Source: Stramenopiles sp. TOSAG23-6 (lineage: Eukaryota). Taken from it: DNA of 44,779 nucleotides. The notes below the pieces were generated by a model that worked only from the letters and a program-made list of their open reading frames with translations, made no database searches and had not been told where the DNA came from. Below are positions 1 through 26,087 of the stretch, piece by piece. Each line of letters opens with the position of its first letter. Position 1 is the first letter of the stretch. Made by a program: the position numbers and the translations under genes. The DNA lies in the NCBI GenBank assembly GCA_900128565.1, contig LT635928.1, positions 1 through 44,779 on the forward strand, written 5' to 3'.

Positions 1-51
1 GAAATTCCGTACCTAACAAATTTTGACTACATTTTTTTTTTCACAATACAT
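1..51 (+). other. 3' part of a non-canonical family intron (ends ...TCACAATACAT), truncated by window start
   Basis: GAAATTCCGTACCTAAC core and TTTTCACAATACAT end match the other family introns; no AG in 1-51. Confidence 0.7.
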
Positions 52-193
52 GTACACGGGACATGTAAATTCTTCACATTGGTTTGCAGTTCCAGAATTC
101 TGGTTGAGTGCATTCTGTTTTGCTGTATTCTTAAGTTTAGCTTTTTGGTTTAGGTCTAATTATTTTAGAACCAACTTTGAAAGTCAAAATTAA
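52..193 (+). CDS. Terminal exon of a membrane protein that starts upstream of the window
   Basis: Open frame after the intron end: YTGHVNSSHWFAVPEFWLSAFCFAVFLSLAFWFRSNYFRTNFESQN*; one hydrophobic segment. Confidence 0.5.
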
Positions 194-260
194 TCTTCAG
201 TTTAGCTTTTTGGTTTAGGCCTAATTATTTTAGAACCAACTTTGAAAGTCAAAATTAATC
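134..260 (+). repeat. 62-bp near-tandem duplication spanning a stop codon
   Basis: 134-195 and 199-260 are identical except for one base. Confidence 0.9.
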
Positions 261-384
261 AATTTATTTTTGGTCATATATTTTTGATTTTTATTCCGCA
301 TTGAAAGTTAAATTCATATGTCAATATAAATTATTTGGAAATTATGTGAAGAAGAAAAATAACTAGTTGAATGAATTTTGAAAT

Positions 385-477
385 TGATACTAATACATCA
401 AATCATAAACACTAATACTAATACATCAAATCATAAACACTGATACTAATACATCAAATCATAAACACTGATAGTAA
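385..477. repeat. 28-bp tandem repeat, about 3.3 copies
   Basis: Unit TGATACTAATACATCAAATCATAAACAC at 385, 413 (one mismatch) and 441. Confidence 0.9.
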
Positions 478-501
478 GTAAAAAAGTGACTGAATAATTT
501 A

Positions 502-2301
502 TTATGAATTATCAACAGCAACTGTTCCGGGTTTTCCAAATAATTTCTTTGCAATCATACACACAAGTTTACTTGATTGAAATTCAATCCGAGCAAATGA
601 TATTGTGATTGAATACATAGATATTACAATTAATAAATACGAGACGATATTTTTAAACGTTAGTTGTAGTGATGATACTCGAGGATAAATCATATATAAT
701 AAATACACCCAAATAAAACGAATGATAAGCGCTAGTCCATTCACACCAAACCAAAAACATCGGTGTTGGCGTCTTTGAATGGAAGATATAAGAGATAATA
801 AAGTATCAGCTTTTTGTCCTCCACAAGAAATTATCGCGTCCCATTCAGATTTATTTTTTTTAATATTTTTTAGTAGGTCTTTTTGCACATATCGCAACAT
901 GCTAATACTTTTGCTCAGAAATATACAACCAAATATTAAACCACAGAAATCACTAATGAATATTGTAACATCAAGAAATGTCCAATCTAATGATTTGTAG
1001 CGCAATGTACTCATTATATTGAGAAGTATAAAGTCAAAAGGTATGACAGCAAAAACAAACACAACCAAAAAACATTGTCGTACTTTCTCATACAGTCGAG
1101 GCTGATCATATGTACTCAAAAGTTGGGAATTTTGAGAATCCGATATTTCTTCATTTGTAGCTTTGTCACTTTCTTCGCTGACGTTTTTGTCAAGTTCATT
1201 GTTGTCTTTGTTTACTTTAGTCTTTATGATAATTTNAACATCATTTTTAGGTTTTCTTTGAATATTCGTAGCACCAAACAAAGAATGTTTTGAATCTGTA
1301 GACATCACATTTCTTTCCTCAAAATCCACTTCATCAAAAATTCCAATAATTGCGGAGATATTACTCAAGATGAATAGCATTGGAAAGCTATACATGCACC
1401 ATATACCTACCCACTGTGGTGCCATTCGAGCACGGCAATTTCCAGACAAAAAAGTGAGTACTCCAAATCCGCAAGATCGGAGCATTACAAGTAAAACGGA
1501 AAGCCGACTTGCGCTGTATTTTCGCATAGTTTCATCTTCTTGCATTTCGGTTATCGTTGCTACACCTTGTTTGAAAGAACATAAACAAAAAAANGGAATG
1601 AAGAAATGAAAATATGTCCAAATATATTGCATATTATTTTCCCATANTACAGACTGATTTTTCGCGTCAATTGAAAAAGATACCGAAATGTTTTGGTTTA
1701 TATTGTTTGGGTTATCGAACTTTGCTTTTAGAAATTTACCGACTGATTCTTTCATATCAACAGTGACCCAAGGAACTCTATCTAGATCCTCAATACCACA
1801 ACAAGCACTGGTCCAACCTGAATGACGACTTAAATAAAAGAAAGCATCTGGCCAATTTTCATTATTCAGTTCAATTATACCAATTGCACCAGCAGTAACA
1901 GCATTGCGATACATTTCTTCAGGTTTGCATCCAATATGAAACGTTGACACTATTATTTTTTCAGAGACGTCAACCAAAATAGTTTCATCACCGATATAGT
2001 GTGTGATACCACATAGATCTGTCACAAACACAACGTCGCCTTTAATTTCCTCCGTTGTTTGAGGCCCAATAAACATATTCATAGCAAATACATTAGATTG
2101 CATCTGAATTTGGTTTTCATCAAGAGTGTATATTTGTGTATATGTTGATGGTGAAGGCAGTTCGTGAACTACCAACCAAGTTGTTGTCTCTATGAAACCA
2201 GCAAGGACTGCGACAGTTATAAGAGGAACAGGCTGAATCACTTTTCTTAATATCCTCCATCCTTTAGATTCAGTCCAGTTGGGTTTTTTCCTTCGCCTCA
2301 T
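502..2301 (-). CDS. Multi-pass membrane protein with a probable PA (protease-associated)-like domain
   Basis: About 600-aa ORF from first ATG at 2301; N-terminal TM; 'MYRNAVTAGAIGIIELN...VPWVTV' resembles a PA domain; about 7 downstream hydrophobic helices. Confidence 0.6.
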   Translation of the reverse strand: MRRRKKPNWTESKGWRILRKVIQPVPLITVAVLAGFIETTTWLVVHELPSPSTYTQIYTLDENQIQMQSNVFAMNMFIGPQTTEEIKGDVVFVTDLCGITHYIGDETILVDVSEKIIVSTFHIGCKPEEMYRNAVTAGAIGIIELNNENWPDAFFYLSRHSGWTSACCGIEDLDRVPWVTVDMKESVGKFLKAKFDNPNNINQNISVSFSIDAKNQSVXWENNMQYIWTYFHFFIXFFCLCSFKQGVATITEMQEDETMRKYSASRLSVLLVMLRSCGFGVLTFLSGNCRARMAPQWVGIWCMYSFPMLFILSNISAIIGIFDEVDFEERNVMSTDSKHSLFGATNIQRKPKNDVXIIIKTKVNKDNNELDKNVSEESDKATNEEISDSQNSQLLSTYDQPRLYEKVRQCFLVVFVFAVIPFDFILLNIMSTLRYKSLDWTFLDVTIFISDFCGLIFGCIFLSKSISMLRYVQKDLLKNIKKNKSEWDAIISCGGQKADTLLSLISSIQRRQHRCFWFGVNGLALIIRFIWVYLLYMIYPRVSSLQLTFKNIVSYLLIVISMYSITISFARIEFQSSKLVCMIAKKLFGKPGTVAVDNS

Positions 2302-2485
2302 TAAAACTTGTTTGGTTTGAGAAACTAATCGATTAAGTAACAAACAAAGCAATTACTATACAAGTATTACGTAGTCAAATGTCCAATATCTTAGTACCCT
2401 TTCCCGATGCCTCCTTTTTTTTTTTCCTTTTTTCGTTTTCGGAGGTATTTTAATTTTCGGTTCTTCAGAACTTCTTTGATTTTGT

Positions 2486-2498
2486 GTTACCTGGTAAC
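2486..2498. promoter_or_regulatory. Palindrome GTTACCTGGTAAC in a divergent promoter
   Basis: 6-1-6 palindrome; related TTACCCGGTAA at 12865-12875 in another divergent promoter. Confidence 0.35.
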
Positions 2499-2600
2499 GC
2501 GCGCGAATTCGCAAAAATGATCGATGTCAATATAAATATGATCATCGACAATAAATAGTAAATATTTACAAATTTTTACATAAACAACAACAACGACACG

Positions 2601-3977
2601 ATGTATGCTCTCCGCGGATTACGGACAGGCTTGAAAAATATTCAAAGGTTTTCTACAAACACTTCGCAACAAAAATCTGGGTCATCTCGTCTTTTAGGTG
2701 GACTTGTTCTTTTTGGTGGTACGGGTGTTTTACTTGCCAATCGCGATAGCGAAGCGTACTACGCTCTATCTGACAATGTAATCATGCCTTTATTACGCAT
2801 AATCGATGCCGAAAATGCGCATATTTTGGCAATCAAGGCAGCATCGTATGGGCTATCACCAAAGGACACGACTCCAGATATGTCATTATTGAACACAACT
2901 GTTTGGGGCTTAGATTTTGAGAATCCTATAGGCCTAGCTGCCGGTTTTGATAAGCATGCTGAGGCGATGAAAGGTTTAACAGAGTTTGGTTTTGGATTAA
3001 TTGAAGTAGGAAGTATAACACCTGAGCCCCAGAGTGGAAATCCAAAACCTAGAATGTTTCGCCTAATTCAAGATCAAGCAGTGATCAATCGGTACGGCTT
3101 CAATAGTGAAGGTATTGAAGCTAGTCGTGAACGTCTTCTCCAATACAGAAAAGATTTAAAGTCAAAAGAATCTCAAAAAGATAGAAATCATCACAGTAAA
3201 TATCAAAACAAGTTAGAAAATACTACTATCCATAATGCTAATGCGCGTAATAGTGTACTAGGGATAAATCTAGGTAAGAATAAAACAAGTCCAAGTGCTA
3301 TTGTTGATTATTGTCAAGGTATTAAAAGACTTGCAGTATTTGCTGATTATATTGTAATTAATATTTCATCCCCAAATACTCCAGGATTACGAGACTTACA
3401 GGGTAGGAAGCAATTAGAAGAACTACTAACAGCTGTGAAAGAAGAACTCAACAAAATATCTTGGTCTTCCTCTAAAATTTCAAATGTTGATAGTTCTGGT
3501 TATGATGTTGAAGACTCACGTGGACGAACCTGTCCACCTCTACTTGTCAAAGTAGCCCCAGATTTGTCTGATGATGGTATTCGTGATATTGCAGAAGTTA
3601 TACAAATTGTTGGTGTCGATGGAATTATTGTTTCAAATACAACAAACAAAAGAAAAAAAACTTTAAAAAGTGTAAATAAATTTGAAATTGGTGGTCTAAG
3701 TGGAAAGCCACTCATGGAAGATGCAACTCAAGTCCTTTCTGAATTTTATAGATTAACGAATGGCAAAATTCCTTTAGTTGGAGTTGGTGGCGTTTCATCT
3801 GGTGATGATGCATATAGAAAAATTCGAGCTGGTGCATCATTGGTTCAAATTTATTCTGCATTAGCATANCAAGGACCTGGTATGGTGCCACGTGTCAAGG
3901 AAAGATTAGCAGAACTTCTTTTAAAGGATGGTTTTACATCAGTTGCAGAAGCAGTTGGTGCTGATCATCGGAAATAA
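2601..3977 (+). CDS. DHODH: Dihydroorotate dehydrogenase (quinone), class 2, mitochondrial
   Basis: NPIGLAAGFDK, GNPKPRMFRL, INRYGFNS, NISSPNTPGLR, SNTT, GGLSGKP; N-terminal targeting peptide and TM. Confidence 0.97.
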   Translation: MYALRGLRTGLKNIQRFSTNTSQQKSGSSRLLGGLVLFGGTGVLLANRDSEAYYALSDNVIMPLLRIIDAENAHILAIKAASYGLSPKDTTPDMSLLNTTVWGLDFENPIGLAAGFDKHAEAMKGLTEFGFGLIEVGSITPEPQSGNPKPRMFRLIQDQAVINRYGFNSEGIEASRERLLQYRKDLKSKESQKDRNHHSKYQNKLENTTIHNANARNSVLGINLGKNKTSPSAIVDYCQGIKRLAVFADYIVINISSPNTPGLRDLQGRKQLEELLTAVKEELNKISWSSSKISNVDSSGYDVEDSRGRTCPPLLVKVAPDLSDDGIRDIAEVIQIVGVDGIIVSNTTNKRKKTLKSVNKFEIGGLSGKPLMEDATQVLSEFYRLTNGKIPLVGVGGVSSGDDAYRKIRAGASLVQIYSALAXQGPGMVPRVKERLAELLLKDGFTSVAEAVGADHRK

Positions 3978-4392
3978 TTTTTAAATGAAGTGCCGTTTTC
4001 TTTTATTTTTGTATTTACTAAGTAGTTGAGTTAATTTAGTTTATAAAAACTAGCACAGGCAAGTAAAAGTTAATCATTTCAATGATGATGAATGTAATAT
4101 TATTTTAATTTTTACACAATTTTTTTTTTACCTCGAGTCAATTTTAAACAAAATATGGTACCCGGATACCCCGGTCAAAATTGGCAAGCGAATTTTGCAA
4201 TTTTTTCTGTCAAACACACACAAGACAATGTCATAGGCTCATAACCTACATGAGCTACATGTTGGTATATATACTATGTATGTTTTTATGCACTAGCTAT
4301 CACACGATAATATATCCATAGAGGTACNACTATTACTACACACAGCATCATGATATTGAACTTGTATTAGTGATATTGCTTTGACAAAAGAT

Positions 4393-6060
4393 ATGTCAGC
4401 TTTTTTAAAAAGGAAAAAGAGGAAACGTGTGCCTGTTGAGAATGTACACCGAAATATTTCAGACCGTGTTCGCTCATTCGTTGGCACTACACATAGTATA
4501 CAGGGTGATAATATTGAATGGAAAACCGTTCTCGACCGAGCTCTCCAGAGTGACAACCATAAGAAGCGTTTATTGGGAGTTTACTTGGTAGCTTTAGATC
4601 TAGTTAATGGTATATATCAGAACTGGTGCTTCATTCGCCTTTGTACTGCGTCAGTAGATTCTAACCCATTAATTCGCTTTTCAGCACTTCGAGCTCTTCG
4701 TGGTGAAATTGAACCTCTTGGTGTTGACACTGTAGCTTCCCTGCACCATATACACCACACATTTAAGCTGAAGCAATGTTTAGATACATGTGCACAAATA
4801 CATTTTGCACCTGAACTTCTCTTGCTTACGTTATCGAAAGACCCTGGGACTGATCTACTTCAACGTGCTTTGCGTAGTTTTCCCTCATTGTTAGAACACT
4901 TGGCGAATGAGTTTTCTGTTAATTTTAGTAGCGCAAATCAAATTTCGACTGAAAATTTTCACTTATTCGGTGCTGGCTCAGGATACGGTGCATTATCAAA
5001 TGCATTAAGTGAAAAATTTATAGGTAATCGTATAGAAGCGTTAAAGACACTTGTATACATTATTTATAATATAAGTATGATCGACCCCTTATCTAGAAGA
5101 ATAGCAAGTGATATTATAGATATCGTATTTTGCACATTAGAAGACAGTGATGATAGAGTACGTCTCTCAGGATTATATTCTGTTGGTATGATATTATCAC
5201 GTTCAGTTGATTTTGGTGTACATCAAATATCATCCTCACAACTTTCTCTTCTTTTACCTTTCATTTCATGTACGAGTCCTATAAATGAGGGGTGTTGTAC
5301 TCAGAAAATTCAAAATTCGTTAGGTATGGAATTTGGTACAGATTCATTTTTGAATTTGCCAAGTACCACCTCTATAACTCTTGAAAACTCCGATACTAAT
5401 CGTATATTAAGTATATCATTCGAGTGTATAGAGACTATTAATATTTTGAGTAATATTCAATGTAGATCTGTACAGAAATTAAATGTCATTGTGACTGCAA
5501 TGATTTCACTAAGTCATCAATGTGATGAAAATAATAATGAAATGATAACACATACAGACAATATAAAAAATACNCAAAACATGACTAATTTAGTTTCAGA
5601 AATATATAATAAAAATGATGCGATCCGATATATCTGGTCAGGATTTCGTGTTTTGGGTAAAATGAATAAAGCTTACGTGGGACATTTTCTTGAACATCTT
5701 GTTAAAACAAATCAAAATATGTACGATATAACAAATATGTCATTATTACAACGTGTCTTTCATTCTATACNATGGAAGAGTAAAATATTAGCTATAAATG
5801 ATACTCAAAATCATTTTCAAAATCAGTCAGAGTTTACAAATACAGAGATTAGTTTTCTTCTCTTTCTTTATGGTGCTATTTTCGATACAGTTGATAATAC
5901 TACTCAAACAATAAAATCGTTTGGTACGNAATTTGGTACAAAACAAAAAGATATTGAAATTAACATATCAAATTTGTTGATGGCAAGACTTCGACCAAAT
6001 ACAGTCAATGCTATTAAAAGATCTTATGAAATTGCTCGAAATAGAAAATATATGTTGTGA
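4393..6060 (+). CDS. HEAT/ARM-repeat protein, possibly Integrator subunit 4-like
   Basis: HEAT-type motifs DSNPLIRFSAL, GSGYGALSNALSEKFIGNRIEAL and LEDSDDRVRLSGL resemble the INTS4 middle region as I recall it; start uncertain. Confidence 0.5.
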   Translation: MSAFLKRKKRKRVPVENVHRNISDRVRSFVGTTHSIQGDNIEWKTVLDRALQSDNHKKRLLGVYLVALDLVNGIYQNWCFIRLCTASVDSNPLIRFSALRALRGEIEPLGVDTVASLHHIHHTFKLKQCLDTCAQIHFAPELLLLTLSKDPGTDLLQRALRSFPSLLEHLANEFSVNFSSANQISTENFHLFGAGSGYGALSNALSEKFIGNRIEALKTLVYIIYNISMIDPLSRRIASDIIDIVFCTLEDSDDRVRLSGLYSVGMILSRSVDFGVHQISSSQLSLLLPFISCTSPINEGCCTQKIQNSLGMEFGTDSFLNLPSTTSITLENSDTNRILSISFECIETINILSNIQCRSVQKLNVIVTAMISLSHQCDENNNEMITHTDNIKNXQNMTNLVSEIYNKNDAIRYIWSGFRVLGKMNKAYVGHFLEHLVKTNQNMYDITNMSLLQRVFHSIXWKSKILAINDTQNHFQNQSEFTNTEISFLLFLYGAIFDTVDNTTQTIKSFGTXFGTKQKDIEINISNLLMARLRPNTVNAIKRSYEIARNRKYML

Positions 6061-6116
6061 AAATAATTTTATGAAATTGCTNGAAATAGAAAATATATGT
6101 TGTGAAAATAATTTTA
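6024..6116 (+). repeat. 45-bp tandem duplication spanning a stop codon
   Basis: TTATGAAATTGCTCGAAATAGAAAATATATGTTGTGAAAATAATT at 6024 and 6069. Confidence 0.9.
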
Positions 6117-6272
6117 ATAAATATTACAAAATAGTACAAGATGTTTCTTTTATTTTCATTCCACGTAAAAAATTATGTCATTGCAATTTCATTGAATAAC
6201 GTAAAATATAAAAAAATCATAAACAACATGNTATAGGTAGCATTGTAAAGCCACACTACATTTGTAACATTT

Positions 6273-7487
6273 TTACATTATAATACATGCCTTTGATGAC
6301 ATGTGACTTCCACCTGCATTAGTGTTGATAAGCTGCATAATTTTCTTTGCAAGGACATATGCACATTCTTTGTTTTCGTTTTGTATTGCTACCTCAAGTG
6401 GTGTATTACCCTCGTTGTCACGCACAACAATAGCTTGCATCGAATTTTCTTTTTCAAGAAGCAAAGCTGTTGAAAGCGTACTTCCGACTCTACATGCAGA
6501 ATGTAAAAGAGTTTCACCTTTAGAATTTGATTCAGAGACATCAATATTGTTACCATATAATAACATCATAACTTCCTGAGTATTATTGTTTATAACTGCA
6601 TTATGAACTTCTGTATGTTCTGGGTCCTCATCCTCATATGAAGCATTGTTTCCATATTTTCCAGATAGACTAGCATTTCGACGAGGACTTGACGATGTTT
6701 TTTTACCTTTCTTTCTTTTCTTCTGAGGTGTACCTGGAGCACTGATTTGATTTGGGCATAATGTACTACCAACTTCTAACACCTTCTTTGCAAGTAGGTA
6801 GGAACAATCTTTATGCTGATTCAGAATGGATACCTCAAGTGGAGTATGATTTTGTTTATCAACTAGAAATAAAGCTTCCTTTGCCTTATCTTTTTCCAGA
6901 AGTAATGCAACACAAAGTGTACTACCAACTCTTGATGCTTGATGGAGAAGTGTCTGGCCTTGTTCATCTTGATTTTTCAGATCGATAGGTTCACTATAAA
7001 GAAGTGTCATTACAGTTTGAACGTCACTATTTGCCACAGAATGATATAACTTCTGAAGTAACTCAGAACTTCCTAACTCATTCGAGTCTAAAAAACCATC
7101 GCGATTTTTGTCAGCTTGCATCATCAAATTTTTAGCGGAAGACTCAGTTACGAGAATGCCACGATTTTGCATACCCTTCATTAATTCTTGCTGTGTTATT
7201 TTTCCATCGCCGTCTTTATCAAAATCGGCAAGCATTCCATGCGCTGCCTGTTTATGCTCCGACATCATCTGTTGACCATGTGTTTTACCTTCTCTACGAT
7301 GCGGTGATGCTATTTGAGTATTTGAACCATATTGACTATACTGTTGTTGCTGTTGCAATCCACCCATCTGGCCAAAACTCTGTTGTCCGAAAGGAGACTG
7401 AGGTATTCCAGCAGAATGACTTTGGTTTTGTCCACTAAATGAATATCCCATACCCTGCTTACCCTCGCGAGCTGGAGAATTCATCAT
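6273..7487 (-). CDS. EF-hand pair plus ankyrin-repeat protein with C-terminal CaaX
   Basis: DKDGDGKITQQE and DKNRDGFLDSNE EF loops; two similar ANK blocks (GQTLLHQA...TPLEVS, GETLLHSA...TPLEVA); ends CIIM. Confidence 0.85.
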   Translation of the reverse strand: MMNSPAREGKQGMGYSFSGQNQSHSAGIPQSPFGQQSFGQMGGLQQQQQYSQYGSNTQIASPHRREGKTHGQQMMSEHKQAAHGMLADFDKDGDGKITQQELMKGMQNRGILVTESSAKNLMMQADKNRDGFLDSNELGSSELLQKLYHSVANSDVQTVMTLLYSEPIDLKNQDEQGQTLLHQASRVGSTLCVALLLEKDKAKEALFLVDKQNHTPLEVSILNQHKDCSYLLAKKVLEVGSTLCPNQISAPGTPQKKRKKGKKTSSSPRRNASLSGKYGNNASYEDEDPEHTEVHNAVINNNTQEVMMLLYGNNIDVSESNSKGETLLHSACRVGSTLSTALLLEKENSMQAIVVRDNEGNTPLEVAIQNENKECAYVLAKKIMQLINTNAGGSHMSSKACIIM

Positions 7488-7825
7488 TTTTCTCAAACTT
7501 TAACTCTACTACACTGTCTGAATAAAATCTAGCGCTTGTTTGTAGAGAGGCTTTTGAATGGAACAAAAATGTTATTTCTGTGTGTATTCTCCTTTTTATG
7601 TAATAAAGAAAATTTTATAGAGTTCGGTGTAACGTACGAAAAAGTGTAACGTTCTTCTAAATAGTTGTACTATTATACACGAAATATTGATTTTTTTCAT
7701 ATTATTTCAAATTTTCATTTTGAATTCAAAAATCTCAAATAAATCGAATGAATTCCTTTTCGTTTGTTTCTTTTTCTTTCTATCCTCCTTCTTCTTGCTT
7801 ACTTTTTTTTGCTAAGACTAGATAT

Positions 7826-10800
7826 ATGGACTCCAATACACATACAGAACATCTTCTGTCAAGTAATAGACATCTGAAAAAATGTATGGAAGAGGGTATG
7901 AGTGTTGAGCGACGAAAGGGTTTAAGCTCTCAAGAGGCTGCCGCAAGGTTGGAAGAGTTTGGATATAATGAGTTGCCAGAGAAGAAACGTAACGTTTGTT
8001 TTGAGTTCTTGGCTTACTTCTGGGGGCCAATGCCACTGATGATTTGGGTTGCGATGCTTCTGGAATTTGCGCAAGCAATAACTGGTGATTCTGAGCATTG
8101 GGCTGACTTTGTAGTTCTCTTGATCCTCCAAGTTGCAAATGGTACCGTTGCCTTTTTTGAAGAAAGGAATGCTGGAAATGCTATTGCTGCGTTAAAGGCT
8201 TCACTGGCACCTAAAGCAACTGTAAAACGAGATGGAAGATTTATGAATATCCCGGCACGTGAGCTTGTTCCAGGTGATGTGGTTAATCTTAAATTGGGTA
8301 ACATTGTTCCAGCAGATTGTGTCTTATTGGAAGGTAAACCAATGCAAGTAGACAGATCTGCTTTAACTGGAGAAAGTCTTGCTGCCACTGTAAGGTAAGT
8401 TATTTGACATCTATCAATCCATTATATGAAATGTAAATAATCGTAATGCTTATATCATTTTTTTTTATTTTTTACACTCTCAACAGACCTGGTGATACTG
8501 TAGAAATGGGCTGTACAATTGAAAGGGGTGAGTTAGAGGCTATTGTTGAAAATACTGGCGTAAATACTTTCTTTGGTCGTACAGCAATGATGTATGTTTT
8601 ATTTTTTTTCAAATTCGATTTTTTTTTTTTGGTTTCGTACTNAATTTTGTACCTAACNATTTTTTTTTGAAATATTTTTCCAAAATACATGGTTGGAGAA
8701 ACTGAAAATGTTGGTAGATTTCAAATGGTTTTATTTCGTGTGATGCTCTTCCTCATGGCAATTGCGTGTTTTCTTGTTGGTATTATACTTTTTAAATTGC
8801 TCAGTGGAAGAAATTTAACAGCTAAAGTAGTGCTACAAAGTGTTGGTGTAGCTGTAGTAATATTAGTTGCATCTATTCCTATTGCAATGCAAGTAGTTGC
8901 TACTGTAACTATGGCCGTTGGTGCTTCATTACTTGCCAAAGAAAAAGCAATTGTTGCGCGTCTTTCAGCAATTGAAGAACTTGCTGGCATGGAAATTCTT
9001 TGCTCCGATAAAACTGGAACATTAACAATAAATAAATTGACTCTTGACGACCCTATTGTAATAGATGGTAATAGTGCAAACAGACGTAATACACACAGTA
9101 AACAAGAAAGAACATCTGAATCTTTTACACTTGAACCTGAGCATATCATTTTCTATGCAGCTTTGGCAGCAAAACGAATTGAAGGAGCTGGACAGGATGC
9201 TATAGATTTTTGTATTACACAAAAAGCTTTTCAACTTGGGGAAGTTGAGCTTCCAAATGGAATTGGTTCAAGGAGTTTAAGAGACTTTGAGGAATTAGAT
9301 TTTCTTCCTTTTGATCCATTATTGAAACGCACAGAAGCTACTGTACAACCGACTAATGCACATATGTCAAAATCTCGAAGAAAATTACGAAGTAATATGG
9401 AAAATGCACATGAACTTGACCAGGTAGGGTTAGTTGGTGCCCCATTCAAAGTGACTAAAGGAGCAGCTCCAGTCATTATAGACATGTGTGTAAATGGAGC
9501 AGAAATGAAAAGTGAAGTTCTACAAGTCGTTGATAATCTTGCTGGTAATGGCTATCGAGCTCTTGGTGTAGCAGTTCATACTCCTATTGATTCAAATCAC
9601 ACTAATACAAATAAAGCAAAAGATTTGTCTGATGGAGCTTGGAAGTTTATTGGAATTCTCAGTTTGTTTGATCCTCCGAGAAGTGATACAAAAAGGACAA
9701 TAGAATTGGCCACGGAAATGCAAGTTGAAGTCAAAATGATTACAGGAGATCATGGAGCTATTGCCAAGGAGACTGCAAAAAGATTATCTATGGGTACAAA
9801 TATATTCCCCGCCGATTCATTAAAAGGTTTATCAAAAGCTGCTGAAATGAATAATGTTCCCCCCGCAATGCAGGAACTGGTCATTTCTGCGAATGGCTTT
9901 GCTGAAGTTCTTCCTGAAGATAAATTCAATATTGTCAAAGTTTTAATGGATCGTGGATATACTGTTGGTATGACTGGCGATGGTGTGAATGATGCACCTG
10001 CATTGAAGAGAGCTCAAATTGGAATTGCTGTGGAAGGAGCTACAGATGCTGCAAGGGCGGCAGCGGATATTGTCCTAACTGAACCGGGTTTGTCTACAAT
10101 TATCAAAGCTATGGTATTAAGTAGGAAAATATTTCAGCGTGTACGAAATTATTGTATTTTTCGCATTGCTGGAACTATTCAATTGATATTTTTCTTCTTT
10201 ATCGCGGTAAACTTCAAACCTAAGCAATATTTTCATTTGAGTGATGATGTATTGTCTGTAGATAATGTCTACTTACCTGTGATTGCTATTGTTCTAATAA
10301 CATTGCTAAATGATGCATGTGTACTCACCATTGCTAGAGATAATGTAGTGCCATCACCAAAGCCTCAACAATGGGATTTAGTAGAGGTGTTTGTTTCAGC
10401 TAGTGTACTTGGAGCAGTCGCTTGTATAGGTTCCACTCTCATTTTAATAATTGGTCTTCATGCAGGCAATACTGATAGATGGAACAGTAGCGCGTGTACA
10501 TTTTTTCCTGGTGAGAAAAATAATGAAGGGAAATGTGTTATTCAATATGATCAACTATTAACTGTGTTATACTTGAAGTTATCTTTAACTGATTTTATCA
10601 CTGTATTTGCTGCACGAACTCGAAACTTCTTCTTTTCTCGTGCCCCTGCCGTTGCATTATCTGGAGCATTTGTTGTAGCTACTGGATCAACATCATTTAT
10701 TGCAGGTAATGCTAAACTTGGTAAACTTATGTCTCCTATACCTATTGGTATGATTGTAATGACTTGGATATTTTCGATTATTTGCTTTCTAGTTCAAGAT

Positions 10801-10986
10801 ATTGTTAAAGTAATGACGTACAAATGTCTTGATTGTATGAGAGGGAAAACGCAAAATAATCTTGAAGAAGTTCTATGTAACGATTCACAGAACAGAAGAG
10901 TTACTGATTTAGAGAGACAAGTTAGTTTTCAACGTAATGCTACAAATAATACAGATGAGACGAAATATTCTATTTTACCCAACTAA
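7826..10986 (+). CDS. PMA1: Plasma-membrane P-type IIIA H+-ATPase; exons 7826-8394, 8487-8591, 8691-10986 (about 989 aa)
   Basis: FGYNELPE, LTGES, CSDKTGTLT, KGA, DPPR, MITGD, TGDGVNDAPALK; splicing restores TFFGRTAMMVGETENVGRFQ; start codon uncertain. Confidence 0.95.
8395..8486 (+). other. Canonical GT-AG intron (92 nt)
   Basis: AG|GTAAGT ... CTCAACAG|; phase 2 joins both frames. Confidence 0.9.
8592..8690 (+). other. Non-canonical GT-AT family intron (99 nt)
   Basis: GTATGTTTT...TTGTACCTAAC...CCAAAATACAT; in-frame stop inside, no AG inside; removal restores the conserved ATPase segment. Confidence 0.85.
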
Positions 10987-11289: not shown

Positions 11290-12747
11290 TTAAGCTTTGT
11301 CTTTTTTAGCCTTCTTTTCTTTTTTAGCTTTCTTTTCTTTCTTCTCTTTCTTTTCTTTCTTTGCCTTCTTAGCTTTCTTAGCTTTGGGAGCATCAGGTGT
11401 GGCCTCAGCTTTGCGTTTTGTTCCAGCACCTAAGGAAGAGTCACTCGCATCATTATATGAACCATTCTTAGCTGGGCTTACAATATCCATATTAGTTTGA
11501 CGCTTAGATGCTGAACCAGATAATGAAATATTTGCACCACCATCCATTTGTCTTAATCTGTCTTCGACCTTTGCTCGCATTTCAATACCACAAGAATTAT
11601 CTGAGGTTTCACTGAGTGCATCTATACGGATCGCAAGAGCTGATTTAGCAGCTAAAACACGTGAGATCTTACCCTTATTTTTTGGAGCTGCTTGACCAAT
11701 AAGTGATGCATGATAGATTAATCCATATTTTGGTGTATCACTCTTTGTCTTGAGAGCACGAAACAATGCTTTCTCAGCACCAAGAATTTGAACAGTAGAC
11801 GCAGGCTGTTTAGCAAGGTTCAGCAAAGAACCAGCATGAGCAATTAACCTTGCTCCTACTAACTCACCGACCATAACAGTAAGATTAGGAGCAATAGCAT
11901 TCATACGAGCTTTTAAATAATCACTCAACTGAGCACGATAATCATAAAGACCAACAACTTGTTCACATAGAGTTTGGACATTTTCCAAATCTTGAGCGGT
12001 AACGTCGACACCCATAGATATTGCTGCAGAAGACTTCAAGTCAGCTTCAACTTGTTCGTCAGCTAAAATATCAGAGAAATCCATTTCATTAATTCCTTTA
12101 CGAGTTCCCAATTTGAGCACAATTTGAGCATATGAAAGATTATCCAAAACAACCTTTTGCATCTCTGGAAAGTGCCAACCGTACCATTCCTTAACGCGCA
12201 TGGCGTATGTGTTGATTTCTTTATCAAGGTCGTCCAACAATCCAATTGCTTGGACAATCATCGTGTCAACTTTGTCAGGTGAAAACTTTAATTTATAACG
12301 AGATAAACTATGAGAAAGAGACAATGCCATTTGCTGCATATGTCCTTCCTCGAGACCTTGAATGAGTGAAGACATTTGAGAACGAACACCTCGTACAAGT
12401 TCATTAACCATACGGTTTGACTCACACATGATACCAAGCTTTTTCTTAATCAAACCACCAACTTTTGCATCACATACTGCAAGTGTATCAGTAAGACCCT
12501 TCTTGACAATATGCTTTTTCAAAAACTTTGATAAAGGTTTGTCTAAAGTGCTCTCTACAAGCGCAGTAGCAGCTGCAACTGCAGCTTTCGAGTCATCGAA
12601 TTTATTGAACGCACAAAGCTGTACTGCTTTGTTTGCCTTTTCCGCGGTAGCAAAGTAATCCATTACATTATCTGCATCTTTAAGTACATTCTCATCTGCC
12701 ACTTTGAAAATGGCTTGACCAGCAGCTGTTTCAAATAGAAGAAGCAT
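11290..12747 (-). CDS. NOP58: Nucleolar protein 58 (box C/D snoRNP)
   Basis: MLLLFETAAG start; SLSHSLSRYKLKFSPDKVDTMIVQAI, EWYGWHFPE, PASTVQILGAEKALFRAL; KKE-rich tail. Confidence 0.96.
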   Translation of the reverse strand: MLLLFETAAGQAIFKVADENVLKDADNVMDYFATAEKANKAVQLCAFNKFDDSKAAVAAATALVESTLDKPLSKFLKKHIVKKGLTDTLAVCDAKVGGLIKKKLGIMCESNRMVNELVRGVRSQMSSLIQGLEEGHMQQMALSLSHSLSRYKLKFSPDKVDTMIVQAIGLLDDLDKEINTYAMRVKEWYGWHFPEMQKVVLDNLSYAQIVLKLGTRKGINEMDFSDILADEQVEADLKSSAAISMGVDVTAQDLENVQTLCEQVVGLYDYRAQLSDYLKARMNAIAPNLTVMVGELVGARLIAHAGSLLNLAKQPASTVQILGAEKALFRALKTKSDTPKYGLIYHASLIGQAAPKNKGKISRVLAAKSALAIRIDALSETSDNSCGIEMRAKVEDRLRQMDGGANISLSGSASKRQTNMDIVSPAKNGSYNDASDSSLGAGTKRKAEATPDAPKAKKAKKAKKEKKEKKEKKAKKEKKAKKDKA

Positions 12748-13573: not shown

Positions 13574-15313
13574 TTATTTAGTGGGTGAAACAAAATAATG
13601 TGAACTCGTCAATCCGTTTTCAATCCCTGTAAGCAAATTTAACCTAAATTTCTTCGAAACACGAGCAAAATTTGTGATTTGTGTTCGATGATCTAAAAAT
13701 AGTTTTCGATCTTTTAGTTCAGGTGCGAGAAAAGTATCCAACGGTTTTTCAACTAATTCATGCAACGCTTCTGTATTAACTTCAAGTTTTTCTTGCATAT
13801 GCTCAAAAAGATTCTTTTCCTCACCTTTTTCGAGATAATATCCAAAGACATAGGTCCACTGAAGAACTCGTCGAGATTCAATTACTTGAAGCGCAGCTTC
13901 TTTGAGAAACAAAACTTCTGATATATTATATCCTTTATCATGTAATAATCGCTCCATTTTCTTTTCAATATCTGCAAGGCTGCGTTCACCAAAAGTACGA
14001 GCACGGCGATGATTCATGTATCTTTCGAAGTAATGCATATAACGTTCTAAATCATGTTTAGCCATTTGCCTTTTTGACTCAAGTTCTTCCAATTTTCCAT
14101 CTTTTTGTAATTGATCGTATCTATTGCATTTATAATAACCTCCAGTATCGCCACCGTGTTTAGACCAGTCTCCCATGCACATCCAACAAAATTCAAACCC
14201 ACAACCGCCAGCACGCGCCGAACAAGTCATGTGATTACAACCTTGATTTTTTTCTATTGGCTTTCGACACTTCGGACATTGCTTAGTATTTGCCATGATC
14301 CAAGTGACATTTTCACTTTCTGCGCTATTTTTAATGCTCCATTTCTCCATTTGCTCACATGTCGCAGGTCTATGTGCTTCATCTTTACATTTAAAACAAT
14401 ACATATTACCACATGGGCATCGTATATCATATGAACCACCACCAGGAAGATATGATAATAAATCGCATCGCGGAGCTGTACACCATGCTATATCACGATT
14501 TTCATCCGCAAATGAACGCAACACATACCTTTCAAAAGTCTCCAAAGTATTTTTGTCAAGATAACGTTCCCAAAGTTCTTGAGTTACAGCATGGCCGCAT
14601 TCGTGCATTGGACAGCTAAGATAAATACTATTTCTTCCTGTTGTCACTGCAACTGTACAGTGGTCGGCCCAACAATCAGAACAAAAACGATGNCCACAAC
14701 TTAAAGCACTTGTATTTTTTGCATCTACAGTTTCAAGACAACAAGGACATTCCATTTTCACAGCTTTAGGTGGTGACGCTGGTGGCCACTCAGGATCAAA
14801 ACCGACTTTTTTGACAACTTGAGTGGAAGAGTCAAACCATTGTTCTTGAAGCTTATATGAATTCCACTTGAAAAATCGAAGCATAAGAGCAGCNTATTGT
14901 ATTGAGAATATTGAAAAATAATTGGATTAATGAGTAAAAAATAGACATAACATGTTAGTAAAAGCGACTATTGATATCAAAAAACAATGAAACAGTGTTT
15001 AAAAGAAAAGTCAACATCTATAGAAATAAACAGCACGTACCTGCGTCTTTGTCCAACCCATTAGATCAACCATTTCATTCACTAACTTATTCTTTCGCTT
15101 GAATAACATCTTAATTGTAAATATTTTATACGATTCTGTGCGAAGTAGAATTGGAGGTGTCGACCCGCCACCCTCATCACTCATAAAACCAGCCTTGGCC
15201 TCCGACTGTCCTTCGCCATCATATGAACCCACGGAACAATCTCCATCACTATCGTTATACTCGTACTCCATTTCATCTATATCCTCCTCATATTGGTACT
15301 CGTCTTCCGACAT
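13574..15313 (-). CDS. ARIH1: Ariadne-family RBR E3 ubiquitin ligase; exons 15313-15041, 14893-13574 (about 530 aa)
   Basis: Acidic N-terminus, RING1, IBR, RING2 (CPKCRKPIEKNQGCNHMTC), Ariadne domain (LERYMHYFERY, LQWTYVFGYY). Confidence 0.92.
14894..15040 (-). other. Probable canonical GT-AG intron (147 nt)
   Basis: CAG|GTACGT donor, TACTAAC branch, ends CAATAN (last base unresolved); phase 0; lacks the family core. Confidence 0.8.
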
Positions 15314-15514: not shown

Positions 15515-18500
15515 ATGATACTACTGAATATAATATATTCAATTATGGAAATATGCGACAAGCAAGAGGCATCTCAAGCAAAATACAAGGAAAAGAAGTA
15601 TAATTATGATGCTTTAATTGATATGGCACGTCAAATACCAACAAAAAAAAGTCCAAATAAGAAAGTCATATTTCACTTCTCGAATGAAGGTCTAATTGAT
15701 GAATTGGCATCATTTAGAAAACCCAAAAACAACATAGAGCTAAACAACGATAAAAAATCAATCCTACCGAAAGATTTGTTCACATCAATAACATATCCTA
15801 TGAAAAGTAATAATGCAAAGCAACAACGAAATCATTATCATAAGCAGCAAACACAAACCTCAAAGGTCGTTGACAACGAAGAGCGTTTCAAAGAGCTATT
15901 CAGACAGACTATTGATTCGAAACTTGGAATATGCCGGAAAATCTTGGAAAAGAATGCTTCGATTTTTACTTATAATAAATCGAATAGCAATAATAAAACA
16001 AAGAAGAAAGGTCCTACTTGGAACAAAGCTATAGAACATCAATTTTTAGTATTTCGAAAAGCTGTATTTCGTGTAAGTTCTTCTAAACCGTTTTCAACGA
16101 TGCTTTGCTTTCTCATTTCTCCACAACATACTAGTAAGACTTCCGAGGAAGGAAAACCTATACTTGATACCAATGATGACACTTTTTCCAATGAGTATCA
16201 AGACATGGCGGAAGATAAGAGACTAAAATGCATTGCAGAGTTGAATCAAATTTGTGTTCAAATCAAGGCAAATGGCGAAAGTGACTCAAGTAATAAACAG
16301 AAAAATTTCTTGAATAATCTTTGGCAGAAGATAGACACAAATTCGAATGAAGCAGTTTCAATTAGAGAACTTTATGATTTTTTTGAGAAAACTTTTCCTC
16401 CACTTGCTAATAGAAATATCCTTCAAAAGGCATTAAATTCTACTGTGTCTGAAAAAGATACAATAAATAATACAAAATATCCTACTAGGAAAAAAGAGCA
16501 TTTCATTTATCAAAAAGACTTATTTGCAATGTTGAAAAATATTCAAATATACAGCAATAATTATCATAAGATTCAACAATCAAGAAACACATTACATAAT
16601 ACTCTTCGGAAAATTCAAAATCAAGTTGATAGTCTTCAAGTAAAACCTCATGAAAGAATGTTTTATTTGCGAGTAGCAAGACAAATTGATGGAGATCACA
16701 TGCATCGTCAGCACGTAAAGCAATTTTCTCAGAAACATGCTAATTTAGACGATTTTGTTAGTAAAGAACATAGATTAACTGTAGAGCAATTTATGGATTG
16801 CAGGGCAAAATATTTCCGACAAACGAGGCAGAAGTCCCAAAAGAAAAATAAAACAATCAATGATAAGAAACATAAGGCAAAGCAAATAGCAACAAAACGT
16901 AGCAAATTTATTGATGACAAGGATAAAGTTCTACGAAAGTTAAACAAGTTGACAGACCATAGAATATTATCACCAACGCGAAAAATTGAGATTGACGACA
17001 AAGTTACTAAAGTAGACTATAGTACTAAATTTTCAGCAACAACAAAACGTCCAGATGAAACGCTCTCTCCGTTTCTCGACCAACCATTTTTAGGTGAATA
17101 TTTTCCAATAGAAAATCTAGCGATACCAGAACATCATGTTTCCCTGGGGGTATGTTTTATTTTTTTTCAATTTCGAATTTATTTTTTTTGATACGAAATT
17201 TCGTACCTAACAAATTTTACAAAAAAAATATTTTTTCACAATATATGTTCATACAAAATCACCCAAAGGTAGTAAAAGTATGATGAATAATTCTACATCA
17301 GTTTTAGTCGGTGGTGGATTAAATGCAGTAAAAGGAATACAATTGATAAAATCTCCACAAAACCGAGATCCATTGGAGTTGATGATAAAACTTGGTTTTG
17401 AGTATACAAAATGCGTGAAAACATATGGTGGTGGTAAAGCATTGAAAGCTTTTACACAAAGAGAGAAAGAACTATTTGATACAAATGCTACAATTATTCA
17501 AAAGTATATACGTCGTTTGCAATGCATAAATTGGAAATATAGTTTACGTGCTTTACAGACACCTATAGTACTAAGATATGCAATTCATCGGCATTGCAGT
17601 AACTCAATGTTTTTAAAATTACATGATGTTAGAAATATTCTTCAGTATCTAGGTATTTGCATTTCTGAAAGAAATGATAACAAGGATATATTATCTGTAA
17701 GATATCATGGCCCGTATTTATATATGGACTGGGTAGAGGCTAGATTAAATGAACAAAAAACTAAAAATGAGGTGTCGGATATAAATGATGTATTTAATGT
17801 GGATTCCGAAATATTTTATTATTGGTGCAGGAAAAATGTCAGTCATATACTGATACAGCAAAGTATTACAATAAAAGGTACAAATAATAGTCTAAGTGCA
17901 ACTTGTCGGGAGGAAACAAAACTAAATCTATATAGTAAATATTTTTGTAAAAGGCGAACTGAAAATATCCAGCGAGCAAAGTCTGTAATTCGTGGTGCAA
18001 AAGACTTTTTACATTCACATCCAAACATTAGTTTTACATCAAAACTTGAAAATATTTCTAGTGGTCTGGATCGAACTGAAATAAGACAAAGTCAAGTTGA
18101 TGAGTTCAATATATTGCAACTAACACTTAGTGCTCCAGGAAGATTATCTCTTAGTATCACAAATAGCCCAAGAAATCAATCTAAATCAAATATCAAGGGG
18201 AAAATAAAGAAAACATTTGAAGACGAAAATGGTGAAAAACGGCAGTGGTTGGCAAGGAAGAACGCGAATATGTATTTAAAAGACAGAGGTTGGAAGAGGA
18301 AAAGTAAAATATCAAAGTGCAAAGAAAAATTAGATACAATAAAATATTGTAAAGAAATTAAAGAGGTCACAAATGAATTATCACATGTACCAAGTACTTT
18401 CACTCAAACAATGGTAAATTCTGAAGCTCTTGATACAAAATATTTCTCTCCAAAAAAACATCACGAAGACAAAAGTAATAATAAATTTTGTAATGTTACG

Positions 18501-23248: not shown

Positions 23249-24456
23249 TTATAAAAGATCGTCGATTTCATTTTCAATATTGTGTTTACTTGTTTCGGAT
23301 TTATTTGTTTCGGATTTATTTGTTTCGGGTTTCGGTTGTGGCAATTTAACTGTTGTTTTTGGTTTTAGACGGGCTTTTTTCTTTCGTCGACGAACTCTCA
23401 CAAAAGTGGGGTTAGGGTTTGGAAGCGATAATATTTTTGCTGTTTGTTTTTTAGATATTTCATTATGCATTACTTTACTTGATGGATTTCTAAAGTTTTG
23501 AGATATTTCATTATGCACAACTGTGCTTGATGGATTTCTAAAGTTATCATTCAGATTATCAAAACTGGAAGGCTGTTCGTTCCAATTAACATCATACTCT
23601 TTAATCAAATTATTTCGTGTAGAAATTTCATCATTTGATTCACTGTCAGACTCAGTTTCTTCAATAGTTTTGTCATCACTTTCACCATGTATAGTGAAAA
23701 AATATATCAAATTAAAAATTCATTAGTTAGGTACGCGTAATTTGCTATGAAAAAATAAATTTGAAATTAATGATGAAAACGTACACGATAGTCACTACCA
23801 AGTTGTGCATGTAAATTTTCAATATGTTTTCTTTTCGAATTAAGTAATGCAGTAAATTGTTTAATTAGTTGAATTTCCATTTGTTTTTTTACAGTAGCGG
23901 CTTCAATAGTGGCAGTGTTAGATGCTTTCAAAAGACCTTTCAACTCTTCATTCTGCTTCTTCAAAGAAGAAATTGTACAAATCGACTGAGAGTATTGCTC
24001 TGATACGTCTACAAGTAATTGAGTCATAGCTTCTGATTTTTTCGATTGATGCATATCGATAGAGAGAAGTTTCAGTTTAAGTAAAGATCCTGGTCTCTGT
24101 ACTTTAACAACAAAAGTTCCCGTCTGGCAATTAATAGCATAAGAAAAGCGTGACCGTTCCACTTCTGTACCAAGAAACGCAGTAAACATTGCAGCACAGT
24201 AATCTTCATTAAATTCAACATCATTTGGTTTTAAACCGCTAAATATTTCAAAAGATTGTACCTGATATATTTTCAGACCACGACAAACTTGAATGTCGAG
24301 TTTTACACTGTTTCCAGTGACTCGACCCTTTACAAGAACAAAATAAGAAAATCCTTTGACATTAAAATGGAACATGTTCACTTTTAGAGTACCTTTGTTC
24401 TCATTGACGACATTCCCTGGTGATTCAGTTAACATGGAATCGATACATTCTGACAT
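23249..24456 (-). CDS. XRCC4: XRCC4-like NHEJ protein; exons 24456-23785, 23686-23249 (369 aa)
   Basis: Beta-rich head, then coiled coil with KKQMEIQLIKQFTALLNSKRKHIENL resembling the XRCC4 ligase IV-binding segment; low-complexity tail. Confidence 0.7.
23687..23784 (-). other. Non-canonical GT-AT family intron (98 nt)
   Basis: CGT|GTACGTTTT...GTACCTAAC...TTCACTATACAT|GGT; phase 0 joins the ORFs. Confidence 0.8.
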
Positions 24457-24773: not shown

Positions 24774-26087
24774 ATGTCGCTAAACTCAATGTTTGCACAG
24801 CAAAAGATAGAATCTGAAACACAAATGAACCATGGATATCCTTCGCTTCACAGTGATGAGTTTCAATTATCCAGGATATTATTGAAAGATTTACACAATA
24901 GGGACGATATAATTTCGTCTAGGGATAAAACGTTTCTAAATAGACATATAAATGTTTCACTTGATAAAGCAAAAGTGGAGACATTTTCAGGACTCTATCG
25001 AGGACAACGGCATATTTCTCTAGAGAAAGATAAACTACACAACGCGCCAAGAAGAATACGTACTACTGGAAATCAAAATAAAGGAAAACAAACAAATAAC
25101 TGCTCAGTTACCAATGTCGCTAGAACTAGTTCTCTTGTTCTCTCTCTAGTTTGTGATAATACTGTTCTTCACGTACATTTCATGATTCATTTCAATTTCT
25201 ATTTTAGTATTACCAAATTCTGCACCCAACAAATTTTAAATTTGACATATTTTTTCACAAAACATAGTACTGATTCTATATCCACTGACACTGACGGTGA
25301 CACAGACAATAGTCAATTCATTGATGAAATGAACAATGAAACTTTACACAAAACACAAGCAAAATGTATAAAATCTAAGGTACAACTTTCGAATGTCAGC
25401 GAAAATATTTCCAATGATGTAAAAACAACAGTAAATATGGCACTACAAATGCCTGTTATTCTTAGGGAAATTCACACTGTACTTAAACTTTTACATCAAG
25501 CAAATTTGAAATTTCATCAAGGTATATTAGCTTGTATTCAAGAGAGTTCATTAACTAAATGTCAGAGAAGTTACACAACTTCTACTTACTTTCATTACTG
25601 TGAATTTAATCAATTTGTTGAAGGATTTGAAAATTTAGTTTCTCTTGCACAACTGGAAACTAAGAACCCTAACCCTAATCAATTACCAAAAATGATGTTG
25701 AGAAAATTATCAAACATTATTTTGACTGTCTTTCGTGTGCAGGTATCCAATAGCTCATTCCTTAAATTTGTTGATACTTTAATGGTTTCAGCTTGTTTTA
25801 CAATCATGTCGCTCTGTTACTCCATTAGTAAAAATATGGATATTGATGACGCTAAATATGCCACTATAGTATTCGAATATTTAGATATGGGTAATTTAGG
25901 AATGGTAACGTCATTACAATTGAAGTATTTGTATGATGGTTTAATAGGAATCAGTAAAAGTATTAGTACAAATATTAGTACGAGTGAGTTTATGTTCCCA
26001 CAAAATAATATGAATAGAGTAGAATTTATAATATGGTTTAAAAATTCAATGAAGCGAGGGGTGTTTGCTGATATTTTACAATTATAG
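24774..26087 (+). CDS. Uncharacterised protein with C-terminal EF-hand-like region; probable in-frame intron 25173-25265
   Basis: ORF; VFEYLDMGNLGMVT and MNRVEFIIWF are EF-like. Confidence 0.6.
   Translation: MSLNSMFAQQKIESETQMNHGYPSLHSDEFQLSRILLKDLHNRDDIISSRDKTFLNRHINVSLDKAKVETFSGLYRGQRHISLEKDKLHNAPRRIRTTGNQNKGKQTNNCSVTNVARTSSLVLSLVCDNTVLHVHFMIHFNFYFSITKFCTQQILNLTYFFTKHSTDSISTDTDGDTDNSQFIDEMNNETLHKTQAKCIKSKVQLSNVSENISNDVKTTVNMALQMPVILREIHTVLKLLHQANLKFHQGILACIQESSLTKCQRSYTTSTYFHYCEFNQFVEGFENLVSLAQLETKNPNPNQLPKMMLRKLSNIILTVFRVQVSNSSFLKFVDTLMVSACFTIMSLCYSISKNMDIDDAKYATIVFEYLDMGNLGMVTSLQLKYLYDGLIGISKSISTNISTSEFMFPQNNMNRVEFIIWFKNSMKRGVFADILQL
25173..25265 (+). other. Degenerate GT-AT family intron, stop-free and 3n (93 nt)
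   Basis: GTACATTTCATG...TACCAAATTCTGCACCCAAC...TTTTTCACAAAACAT inside an open ORF. Confidence 0.65.

Follow-up and report, generated by a model that had tools for sequence, protein, structure and literature searches.

A repeated, introner-like element with a non-AG 3' end in the H+-ATPase gene and other genes of a marine stramenopile

In this work we have examined a 99-nt insertion at positions 8592-8690 of the forward strand in a contig of Stramenopiles sp. TOSAG23-6 (LT635928.1, 44,779 nt, here called the window), where it interrupts a gene for a P-IIIA plasma-membrane H+-ATPase. Judged from the DNA, the insertion is probably one of a set of transposon-like introns of about 100 nt, of the kind known as introners, which would combine a normal donor with a non-AG acceptor and would be removed from the RNA. 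The insertion belongs to a repeated family and has to be removed to the nucleotide if the host protein is to keep its conserved spacing; the copies that abut long open reading frames (ORFs) all lie in the sense orientation, AG is avoided within the family, and short direct repeats flank its members. From the strand bias and the splicing-type motifs we infer that removal takes place at the RNA level and is carried out by the major spliceosome at GT|...|AT. AG ends nearly all spliceosomal introns. The original prediction for this locus held that one pre-mRNA, with a canonical intron and a GT-AT intron side by side, needs both types of acceptor to be processed.

The H+-ATPase gene and its two interruptions

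The window is AT-rich, gene-dense eukaryotic DNA with a G+C content of 28-40% per kb and 16 single Ns. The gene at 7826-10986 (+) is, by homology, an intact and conserved P-IIIA plasma-membrane H+-ATPase, and the alignments run as a check bear out the original assignment to this class. Joining the exons by their coordinates gave a stop-free coding sequence (CDS) of 989 amino acids. Among proteins in the PDB, the last large exon found plant AHA2 as its top match (5ksd, E = 9.2e-107) and also matched fungal PMA1 (7vh5, E = 6e-86; 1mhs, E = 1.8e-83), whereas the next pump class, the Ca2+-ATPases, came far below these (E = 2e-42). The P-type phosphorylation motif CSDKTGTLT is encoded in the same exon at 9001-9027. 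The next-best named homologs after the two closest relatives (P0003-P0014, 49-53% identity) come from the chlorarachniophytes Bigelowiella, Lotharella and Amorphochlora and not from other stramenopiles. Exon 3 is matched at 99-100% identity by seven contigs of three RNA libraries, although such libraries can contain DNA. With these contigs and an open spliced frame of 989 amino acids, there is no obvious sign that the gene is a dead pseudogene.

For the analysis of the junctions we aligned the spliced 989-residue product with 39 homologs (P0002-P0040), 38 of which cover the region. Exon 1 (7826-8394, +) starts with the ATG at 7826, has an open frame and aligns with the homologs without gaps up to its junction; the public gene model begins instead at a further in-frame ATG, at 7886. 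It is followed by intron 1 (8395-8486, +), a canonical GTAAGT...CAG intron of 92 nt seen both in the sequence and in the homolog alignment, whose predicted coordinates were reproduced. Its removal joins ...ATV to RPGD..., in agreement with P0002 and with 38/38 covering homologs. Exon 2 (8487-8591, +), defined by its open frame and the homolog alignment, is 105 nt long and ends two bases into a codon, and exon 3 (8691-10986, +), defined by its open frame and the PDB matches, runs to a TAA stop at 10984-10986.

The insertion between exons 2 and 3 (copy c of the family; 8592-8690, +; 99 nt) was recognised by the family profile and by homology. Its first bases are GTATGT and its last ACAT, with GTACCTAAC at 8649-8657, T-runs and, at 8668-8670, an in-frame TGA between them; positions 8642 and 8658 are Ns. 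There is no AG over all 99 nt, and the two Ns cannot conceal one, as the base before each of them is not A and the base after it is not G. The place of the insert, 105 nt after intron 1, its in-frame stop and its freedom from AG were thus all found again as predicted from the letters alone. Read-through was considered and rejected, since the retained insert would be translated into a junk peptide of poly-phenylalanine and then a stop. The first AG on the 3' side, at 8697-8698, lies +8 nt from the end of the insert and is out of frame; the next, at 8716-8717, lies +27 nt away and is in frame at the cost of nine residues. Both of these positions had been put forward earlier, together with the claim that the second AG would damage the conserved segment between TFFG and FQ, and the alignment supports this claim. 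The distance from TFFG to FQ is always 14 residues in the 38 covering homologs, and the use of AG 8717 would drop nine of these residues, while the exact removal of 99 nt leaves every one of these homologs gap-free across both the intron 1 and the insert junctions. Because this spacing is invariant, read-through leads to a stop and the AG at 8717 deletes nine residues, the 99 nt must go exactly at 8591|8691. The closest of the homologs named above, P0002 (68% identity), has the same TFFG-FQ spacing and carries an odd FFFFS stretch just 5' of the family junction, which may be a similar intron that has been mis-modelled.

The insert is flanked by a direct repeat of ATG (8590-8592 on the left, 8689-8691 on the right, +), by which the cut can be shifted by -2 to +1 nt with the same product, so that AT..AC, TG..CA, GT..AT and TA..TG are equivalent. 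We read it as GT..AT because this is the only cut that also fits the other family copies. A leave-one-out profile built from the nine other full copies matched 8592-8690 from end to end (E = 5e-8), and it is because a profile without copy c still finds the whole of it that we regard the insert as more than a chance resemblance.

The repeated family and its borders

Repeat finding and an nhmmer profile revealed nine full and two partial copies of the family in the 44.8-kb window, the full copies having E values of 3e-17 to 5e-11 and lying in seven different genes. One further copy was found by a pattern search with the element core in a public metagenome contig (L001). The core pattern gave no match in viral contigs and only this one locus in metagenome contigs. 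Full copies are 93-111 nt long, with pairwise identities of 57-84% (mean 0.70). Besides copy c, the window holds copy d (17150-17246, +; 97 nt), which lies in a pair of ORFs of 582 and 744 amino acids and, like copy e (23687-23784, -; 98 nt), was placed by ORF continuity and nhmmer; copy f (25173-25265, +; 93 nt), placed by nhmmer and border analysis, which would be open in frame even if retained; and copy g (32276-32375, -; 100 nt), placed between ORFs of 495 and 505 amino acids by their continuity and nhmmer. Two copies occur in a gene for a RING+MFS transporter, namely copy h (34964-35057, +; 94 nt; Pfam, nhmmer and MFS homologs) and copy i (35197-35297, +; 101 nt; MFS homologs), and another two in a DHHC palmitoyltransferase gene, namely copy j (37242-37352, -; 111 nt) and copy k (37705-37802, -; 98 nt), both supported by Pfam and nhmmer. 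All of these read GT..AT except copy i, which reads GT..TT and is bordered by a CTT direct repeat. As for the partial copies, one is a 3' part truncated by the window start (1-51, +; nhmmer E = 1.2e-5), which ends in CACAATACAT and is followed by an open frame of 47 amino acids to a stop. The other is a truncated antisense relic covering profile positions 15-74 of 98 (5885-5975, -; nhmmer E = 2.6e-8). This relic is the sole antisense member. It lies close to the C-terminal end of the + strand ORF 4360-6060, whose frame it leaves open, and it may have been exonised or be in decay. Three of the window's 16 Ns (5929, 8642 and 8658) fall inside family copies, probably because reads that came from different copies or different cells were ambiguous there.

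What the copies share looks like the signals of a spliceosomal intron, up to the 3' end. All ten full copies (nine from the window and L001) start with GT, eight of them with GTAYGT, copy f with GTACAT and copy j with GTTTGT. The sequence GTACCTAAC or a one-base variant of it is present in 10/10, at 34-43 nt from the 3' end and with T-runs downstream; at the level of the motif it resembles a branch site (a CTRAY or TACTAAC-like consensus followed by a pyrimidine-rich stretch). The conserved blocks are, in order, the GTAYGT start, TTTCAAWTT, a T-run, a core TACGAAATTTYGTACCTAAC which contains a palindrome, and a 3' block made up of a T-run and then CACAATAYAT. The central palindrome is the 14-nt TACGAAATTTCGTA. 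Terminal inverted repeats were limited to a 6-nt match of ATGTAT with ATACAT, which needs two exon bases, and no conserved stem was found to pair the element's ends, the RNAalifold consensus having 0 pairs. An Rfam search of the window gave 0 matches.

How well defined is the 3' border? When the interval that starts at the G of GT and stops with the final base of the 3' block is taken out, the long ORFs on either side are joined in frame for 9/9 window copies; the lengths of these copies cover all three classes modulo 3, and the chance of an in-frame result is one in three per copy. In L001 the same removal joins a frame of 178 amino acids to one of 47, a weak case. A start at GT is the only offset which fits all ten full copies, and the terminal 3' dinucleotide is then AT in nine and TT in one; those nine end in AYAT. 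For copy f the GT..AT cut is the only possible one because it has no flanking repeat. The first downstream AG is in frame for only 2/9 window copies (g at +18 and j at +3), and in copy j, where CAG stands directly 3', a GT-AG cut longer by 3 nt would be in frame as well.

Copy i, which ends in ...CACAGAACTT, is the exception and the most instructive member. The CTT with which the upstream exon ends is repeated so that it coincides with the 3' end of the copy. Of 150 MFS homologs returned for this gene, we aligned the first 40 among P0137-P0199 shorter than 700 amino acids. The 101-nt GT..TT removal left all 38 of the 40 which cover the junction gap-free, in the middle of the conserved stretch G..SF...Q..SS..WG..SDK.GRKP, and the junction of copy h was gap-free as well in the 38/40 which cover it. 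A cut at the AG inside copy i would place a TAA directly after the junction, and a cut at the following AG (+8) would shift the frame. The 3' ends of copies c, h and i are set by homology. Of 15 exon translations compared with Pfam, five were named (RING, MFS_1 and three times DHHC), and as it named only those, junctions d, e, f and g depend on ORF continuity alone. The earlier idea of two acceptor types in one pre-mRNA therefore stands in so far as intron 1 is canonical, insert c has to be removed exactly and no usable AG is at hand, but the term 'AT acceptor' has proved too narrow in view of the TT of copy i. The acceptor is better described as non-AG and fixed by the element together with its flanking repeat.

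The mean length of the border repeats is 2.5 nt, where random placement gave 0.79 +/- 0.34 (P ~ 1e-4). They are at least 2 nt long in 9/10 full copies, the types found being ATG, GT, TG, AT, CTT, CAT and none. In sequence they look like target-site duplications, the second repeat of which forms the intron end, and because the intron end is this second copy, removal brings back the sequence as it was before the insertion. The 11 copies which abut a long ORF (the nine of the window, L001 and the partial copy 1-51) all lie in sense, which fits a strand-specific removal, that is, one from RNA. Within the copies AG occurs five times, against 17.8 +/- 3.4 in shuffled sequences, with 0/5000 shuffles as low, whereas GA is not depleted (29 observed, 18.6 shuffled). 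The depletion of AG fits selection against cryptic acceptors, an argument which is weakened by the shared ancestry of the copies.

We propose that a repeated, transposon-like element of about 100 nt has spread through the genes of this marine heterotrophic protist. Each copy would bring its own signals, a strong U2-type donor GTAYGT, the branch-site-like GTACCTAAC, T-runs and the 3' block, and its last two or three bases would usually match those with which the upstream exon ends, in the manner of a target-site duplication. Because the repeat duplicates the exon end, a cut that starts at the G of GT and stops where the repeat ends would restore the pre-insertion frame exactly. The 3' end used by the spliceosome would then be a non-AG one (AT in 9/10, TT in 1/10), and the same spliceosome would handle ordinary GT-AG introns such as 8395-8486 in one transcript. 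The 45 kb contain nine full family copies, compared with two GT-AG introns, of which one is verified and the other probable. We lean slightly towards a stronger version of this proposal, in which a very high-copy introner family locally outnumbers the ordinary introns and its non-AG 3' site, fixed 10 nt past the T-run, ends the target-site repeat and is used in spite of a good AG 5 nt upstream in copy i.

Read evidence and other ways of removing the insert

Several points weigh against removal by the spliceosome at these borders. An intron with G at +1 and T at -1 is mechanistically unusual for the U2-type spliceosome, in which the first and last bases pair at the second step. In copy i, an AG stands 5 nt short of the end we assign to it and would go unused. 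Since the copies share ancestry, the depletion of AG and the conserved blocks are not ten independent observations. There was no RNA contig bridging copies d, e or f among the matches listed, a 23-nt junction probe of metagenome contigs gave 0 matches, and no near-identical protein fragment (55-175 amino acids) was found over the junction among the 14 matches from 64 candidates, the best identity being 78%. Contigs which hold the element, some of them joined to its flanks, are abundant in RNA libraries; they could be unspliced RNA or DNA carry-over, and their depths are not comparable.

The reads come from seawater samples, and contigs were compared from 8659 onward, a range which has the junction 8591|8691 outside it. 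Within this range a DNA contig (run X2, depth 9.0, like that of single-copy neighbours) spans from 8666 inside the element into exon 3. Because this independent seawater contig carries the join between element and exon 3, insert c is real DNA and not an artefact of assembly. On parts of the element, the summed depth per bin reached 6577 and 5362 in DNA run X2; the values in RNA runs X8/X9 were 1597/446 and 559/641, and other parts of the sequence had about 1-9. This shows a high-copy repeat in the samples and is a measure neither of copy number nor of splicing. A possible trace of splicing of another kind was seen in an ariadne-like gene, where a non-family intron (14894-15039, -) with a GTACGT donor and a perfect TACTAAC has N as its last base (14894), so that its AG end is unreadable. 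An RNA contig of 371 nt (X8) aligns as far as 15040, precisely the base with which the exon ends ahead of the GTACGT donor, and has 42 letters left over, which hints at spliced RNA of the source organism.

Could the elements be excised from the DNA instead, by a programmed elimination like that of ciliate internal eliminated sequences (IESs), or could an element-free copy of the gene be the one expressed? The pre-insertion sequence is exactly restored between short direct repeats, the 3' end of the family follows no splice consensus, and element-bearing contigs are abundant in RNA libraries, all of which speaks for excision. Excision would not, however, require that 11/11 ORF-flanked copies be in sense, nor that the conserved blocks consist of a donor and a branch-site-like motif. 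The border repeats vary and have no fixed TA or TTAA, the element is present in the DNA contig from seawater at the depth of single-copy neighbours, and an element-free DNA joint was not found among the matches listed. We therefore consider this explanation unlikely.

The minor spliceosome offers a second possibility, with the H+-ATPase copy read as an AT-AC intron (8590-8688) or as another shifted intron of U12 type. The ATG repeat permits AT..AC in copies c, j, k and L001, GT-AT is a known rare variant of U12-type introns, and both GT-AT and AT-AC termini occur among animal and Physarum introns of this type, according to the accessible part of the literature. Yet AT..AC is impossible for 6/10 copies. 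The donor [G/A]TATC[C/T]TT, a consensus taken from the available part of a Physarum preprint, occurs in 0/10, and the distance between the branch-like motif and the 3' end is 34-43 nt instead of the 9-12 nt given there. A U12-type intron is thus very unlikely.

Is it possible that the spliceosome simply takes the in-frame AG at 8717 and makes a pump which lacks nine residues? GT(8592)...AG(8717) is canonical and in frame, and the public CDS P0001 ends the corresponding intron at 8718. Against it stand the TFFG-FQ spacing, invariant in 38/38 homologs, and the conservation of the nine residues relative to P0002, while in 7/9 of the other copies the same escape to the next AG would be out of frame. 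We find this reading highly improbable. P0001 (GSMAST32.ASY1.ANO1.823.1), the best database match, models this H+-ATPase locus, and 794/797 of its residues map to it letter for letter, in 13 blocks over 7886-10983. Only the first of its 12 predicted introns is real; it continues exon 2 to 8637, 46 nt into the element, resumes at 8719, and removes ten further conserved coding stretches such as 8084-8215. The public gene model of the locus is wrong.

It is equally doubtful that the inserts stay where they are, as recent disabling transposon insertions or as parts of pseudogenes. Insert c has a stop codon, and its removal was deduced rather than seen on RNA, which is what gives this explanation its place. 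But copies are carried by seven of roughly twenty long-ORF genes (a rough count) in one 45-kb window, all the affected genes keep long open frames on either side, and only sense copies are found there. Identities of 57-84% do not point to a single recent burst, and a pump of essential type is intact across 989 amino acids. Finally, bypassing of the insert by ribosomes via matching codons at its ends has in its favour the direct repeats at both ends, but it is hardly credible for inserts of about 100 nt in nuclear genes which carry donor and branch-site motifs and in which no conserved hairpin was found.

Relation to known introns and other features of the window

Removal by the major spliceosome remains the reading we prefer, and with it the closest relatives of the family would be the introners of Micromonas, Aureococcus, Chrysochromulina and others, which, in the portions of that literature available to us, carry one splice site and obtain the other from the target-site duplication or the flank. 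The likeness lies in short repeated elements within genes, short flanking duplications and a frame restored by splicing. In these portions the introners are described with standard splice sites, including some rare GC or GA donors, whereas the present family has AT and once TT at its 3' end. To judge from the name of its closest database record, P0001, our host would be a heterotrophic stramenopile like those of the marine stramenopile (MAST) group MAST-3, and no report of introners in MAST-3 was found in the literature searched. A description of introns was likewise not found in the main text or the searched supplements of the papers on MAST single-cell genomes, and in the available part of the supplement to a pan-eukaryote introner survey, single-cell stramenopile assemblies were tabled as unannotated and an introner call was not found.

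Mass non-canonical splicing is known from two other systems, for which we draw on partial sources. In Fritillaria borealis the transposon-derived introns are mostly AG-AC and AG-AT. In Amoebophrya the introns have no preferred dinucleotides, inverted repeats of 8-20 nt pair their ends, and U1 is apparently missing. Many introns other than GT-AG, direct repeats at the borders and a minority of canonical introns alongside are common to these and to the present genome, but here the donor GTAYGT is strong, the branch motif is of U2 type, only the 3' end deviates and no stem pairing the ends is predicted. With U12-type GT-AT introns, as far as the consulted parts of their description go, the family shares its terminal dinucleotides but neither the donor nor the branch-site distance. 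The rare animal U2-type introns with non-canonical ends, such as the GT-AT intron conserved between human and mouse, resemble it in their optimal donor, pyrimidine tract and non-AG end; in the portion of that work at hand they are isolated single cases, while in our window the non-AG end is a family rule, with nine full copies in 45 kb. The non-conventional introns of euglenids and the IESs of ciliates are similar, again by the accessible accounts, in their non-consensus borders, short repeats and precise removal. The euglenid introns are described there as having paired ends and no pyrimidine tract, unlike the donor and branch motifs seen here, and IESs are removed from DNA regardless of strand, whereas our family is sense-only and has such motifs. 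The combination of a canonical donor, a U2-type branch motif and a family-wide non-AG end was not found described in the literature searched.

If the proposal is right, the major spliceosome of this organism recognises the 3' splice site of the second step in a relaxed or re-specified way, and yet AG is avoided inside the family introns. The choice of the 3' site could then be re-specified without remodelling of the 5' side and with canonical introns in the same transcripts, and the family would be a natural system for studying that choice, the cases of Fritillaria and Amoebophrya being far messier. It would also add a new lineage and a new type of border to the transposon bursts which create introns, here in an intron-poor genome with strong, yeast-like signals. 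There is a practical side as well: gene finders bound to GT-AG mis-model genes with family introns, and for this uncultured group, which matters ecologically, the protein sets are probably corrupted wherever such an intron occurs.

A few further features of the sequences were recorded. The RING+MFS gene which holds copies h and i (34349-36811, +) is one open gene with an N-terminal RING (Pfam zf-C3HC4_3, E = 2.8e-7) and a full MFS_1 domain (E = 1.5e-23); its two family introns are only 139 nt apart, and a 48-nt repeat occurs three times in the transporter part, at 35789-35932. In L001, at about 800-870 in the minus-strand reading, a GTAAGT donor lies 72 nt after the family copy, and telomere-like CCCTAA/TTAGGG repeats are found further on. 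At 134-263 (+), just 3' of the short frame which follows the partial copy 1-51, a 65-nt segment is duplicated in tandem (61/65 identical). Tandem repeats within ORFs were also seen at 43461-43892 (period 12/18), 11294-11394 (9), 33348-33527 (36), 26419-26563 (36), 29681-29742 (12) and 385-477 (28), and these suggest low-complexity segments in the encoded proteins.

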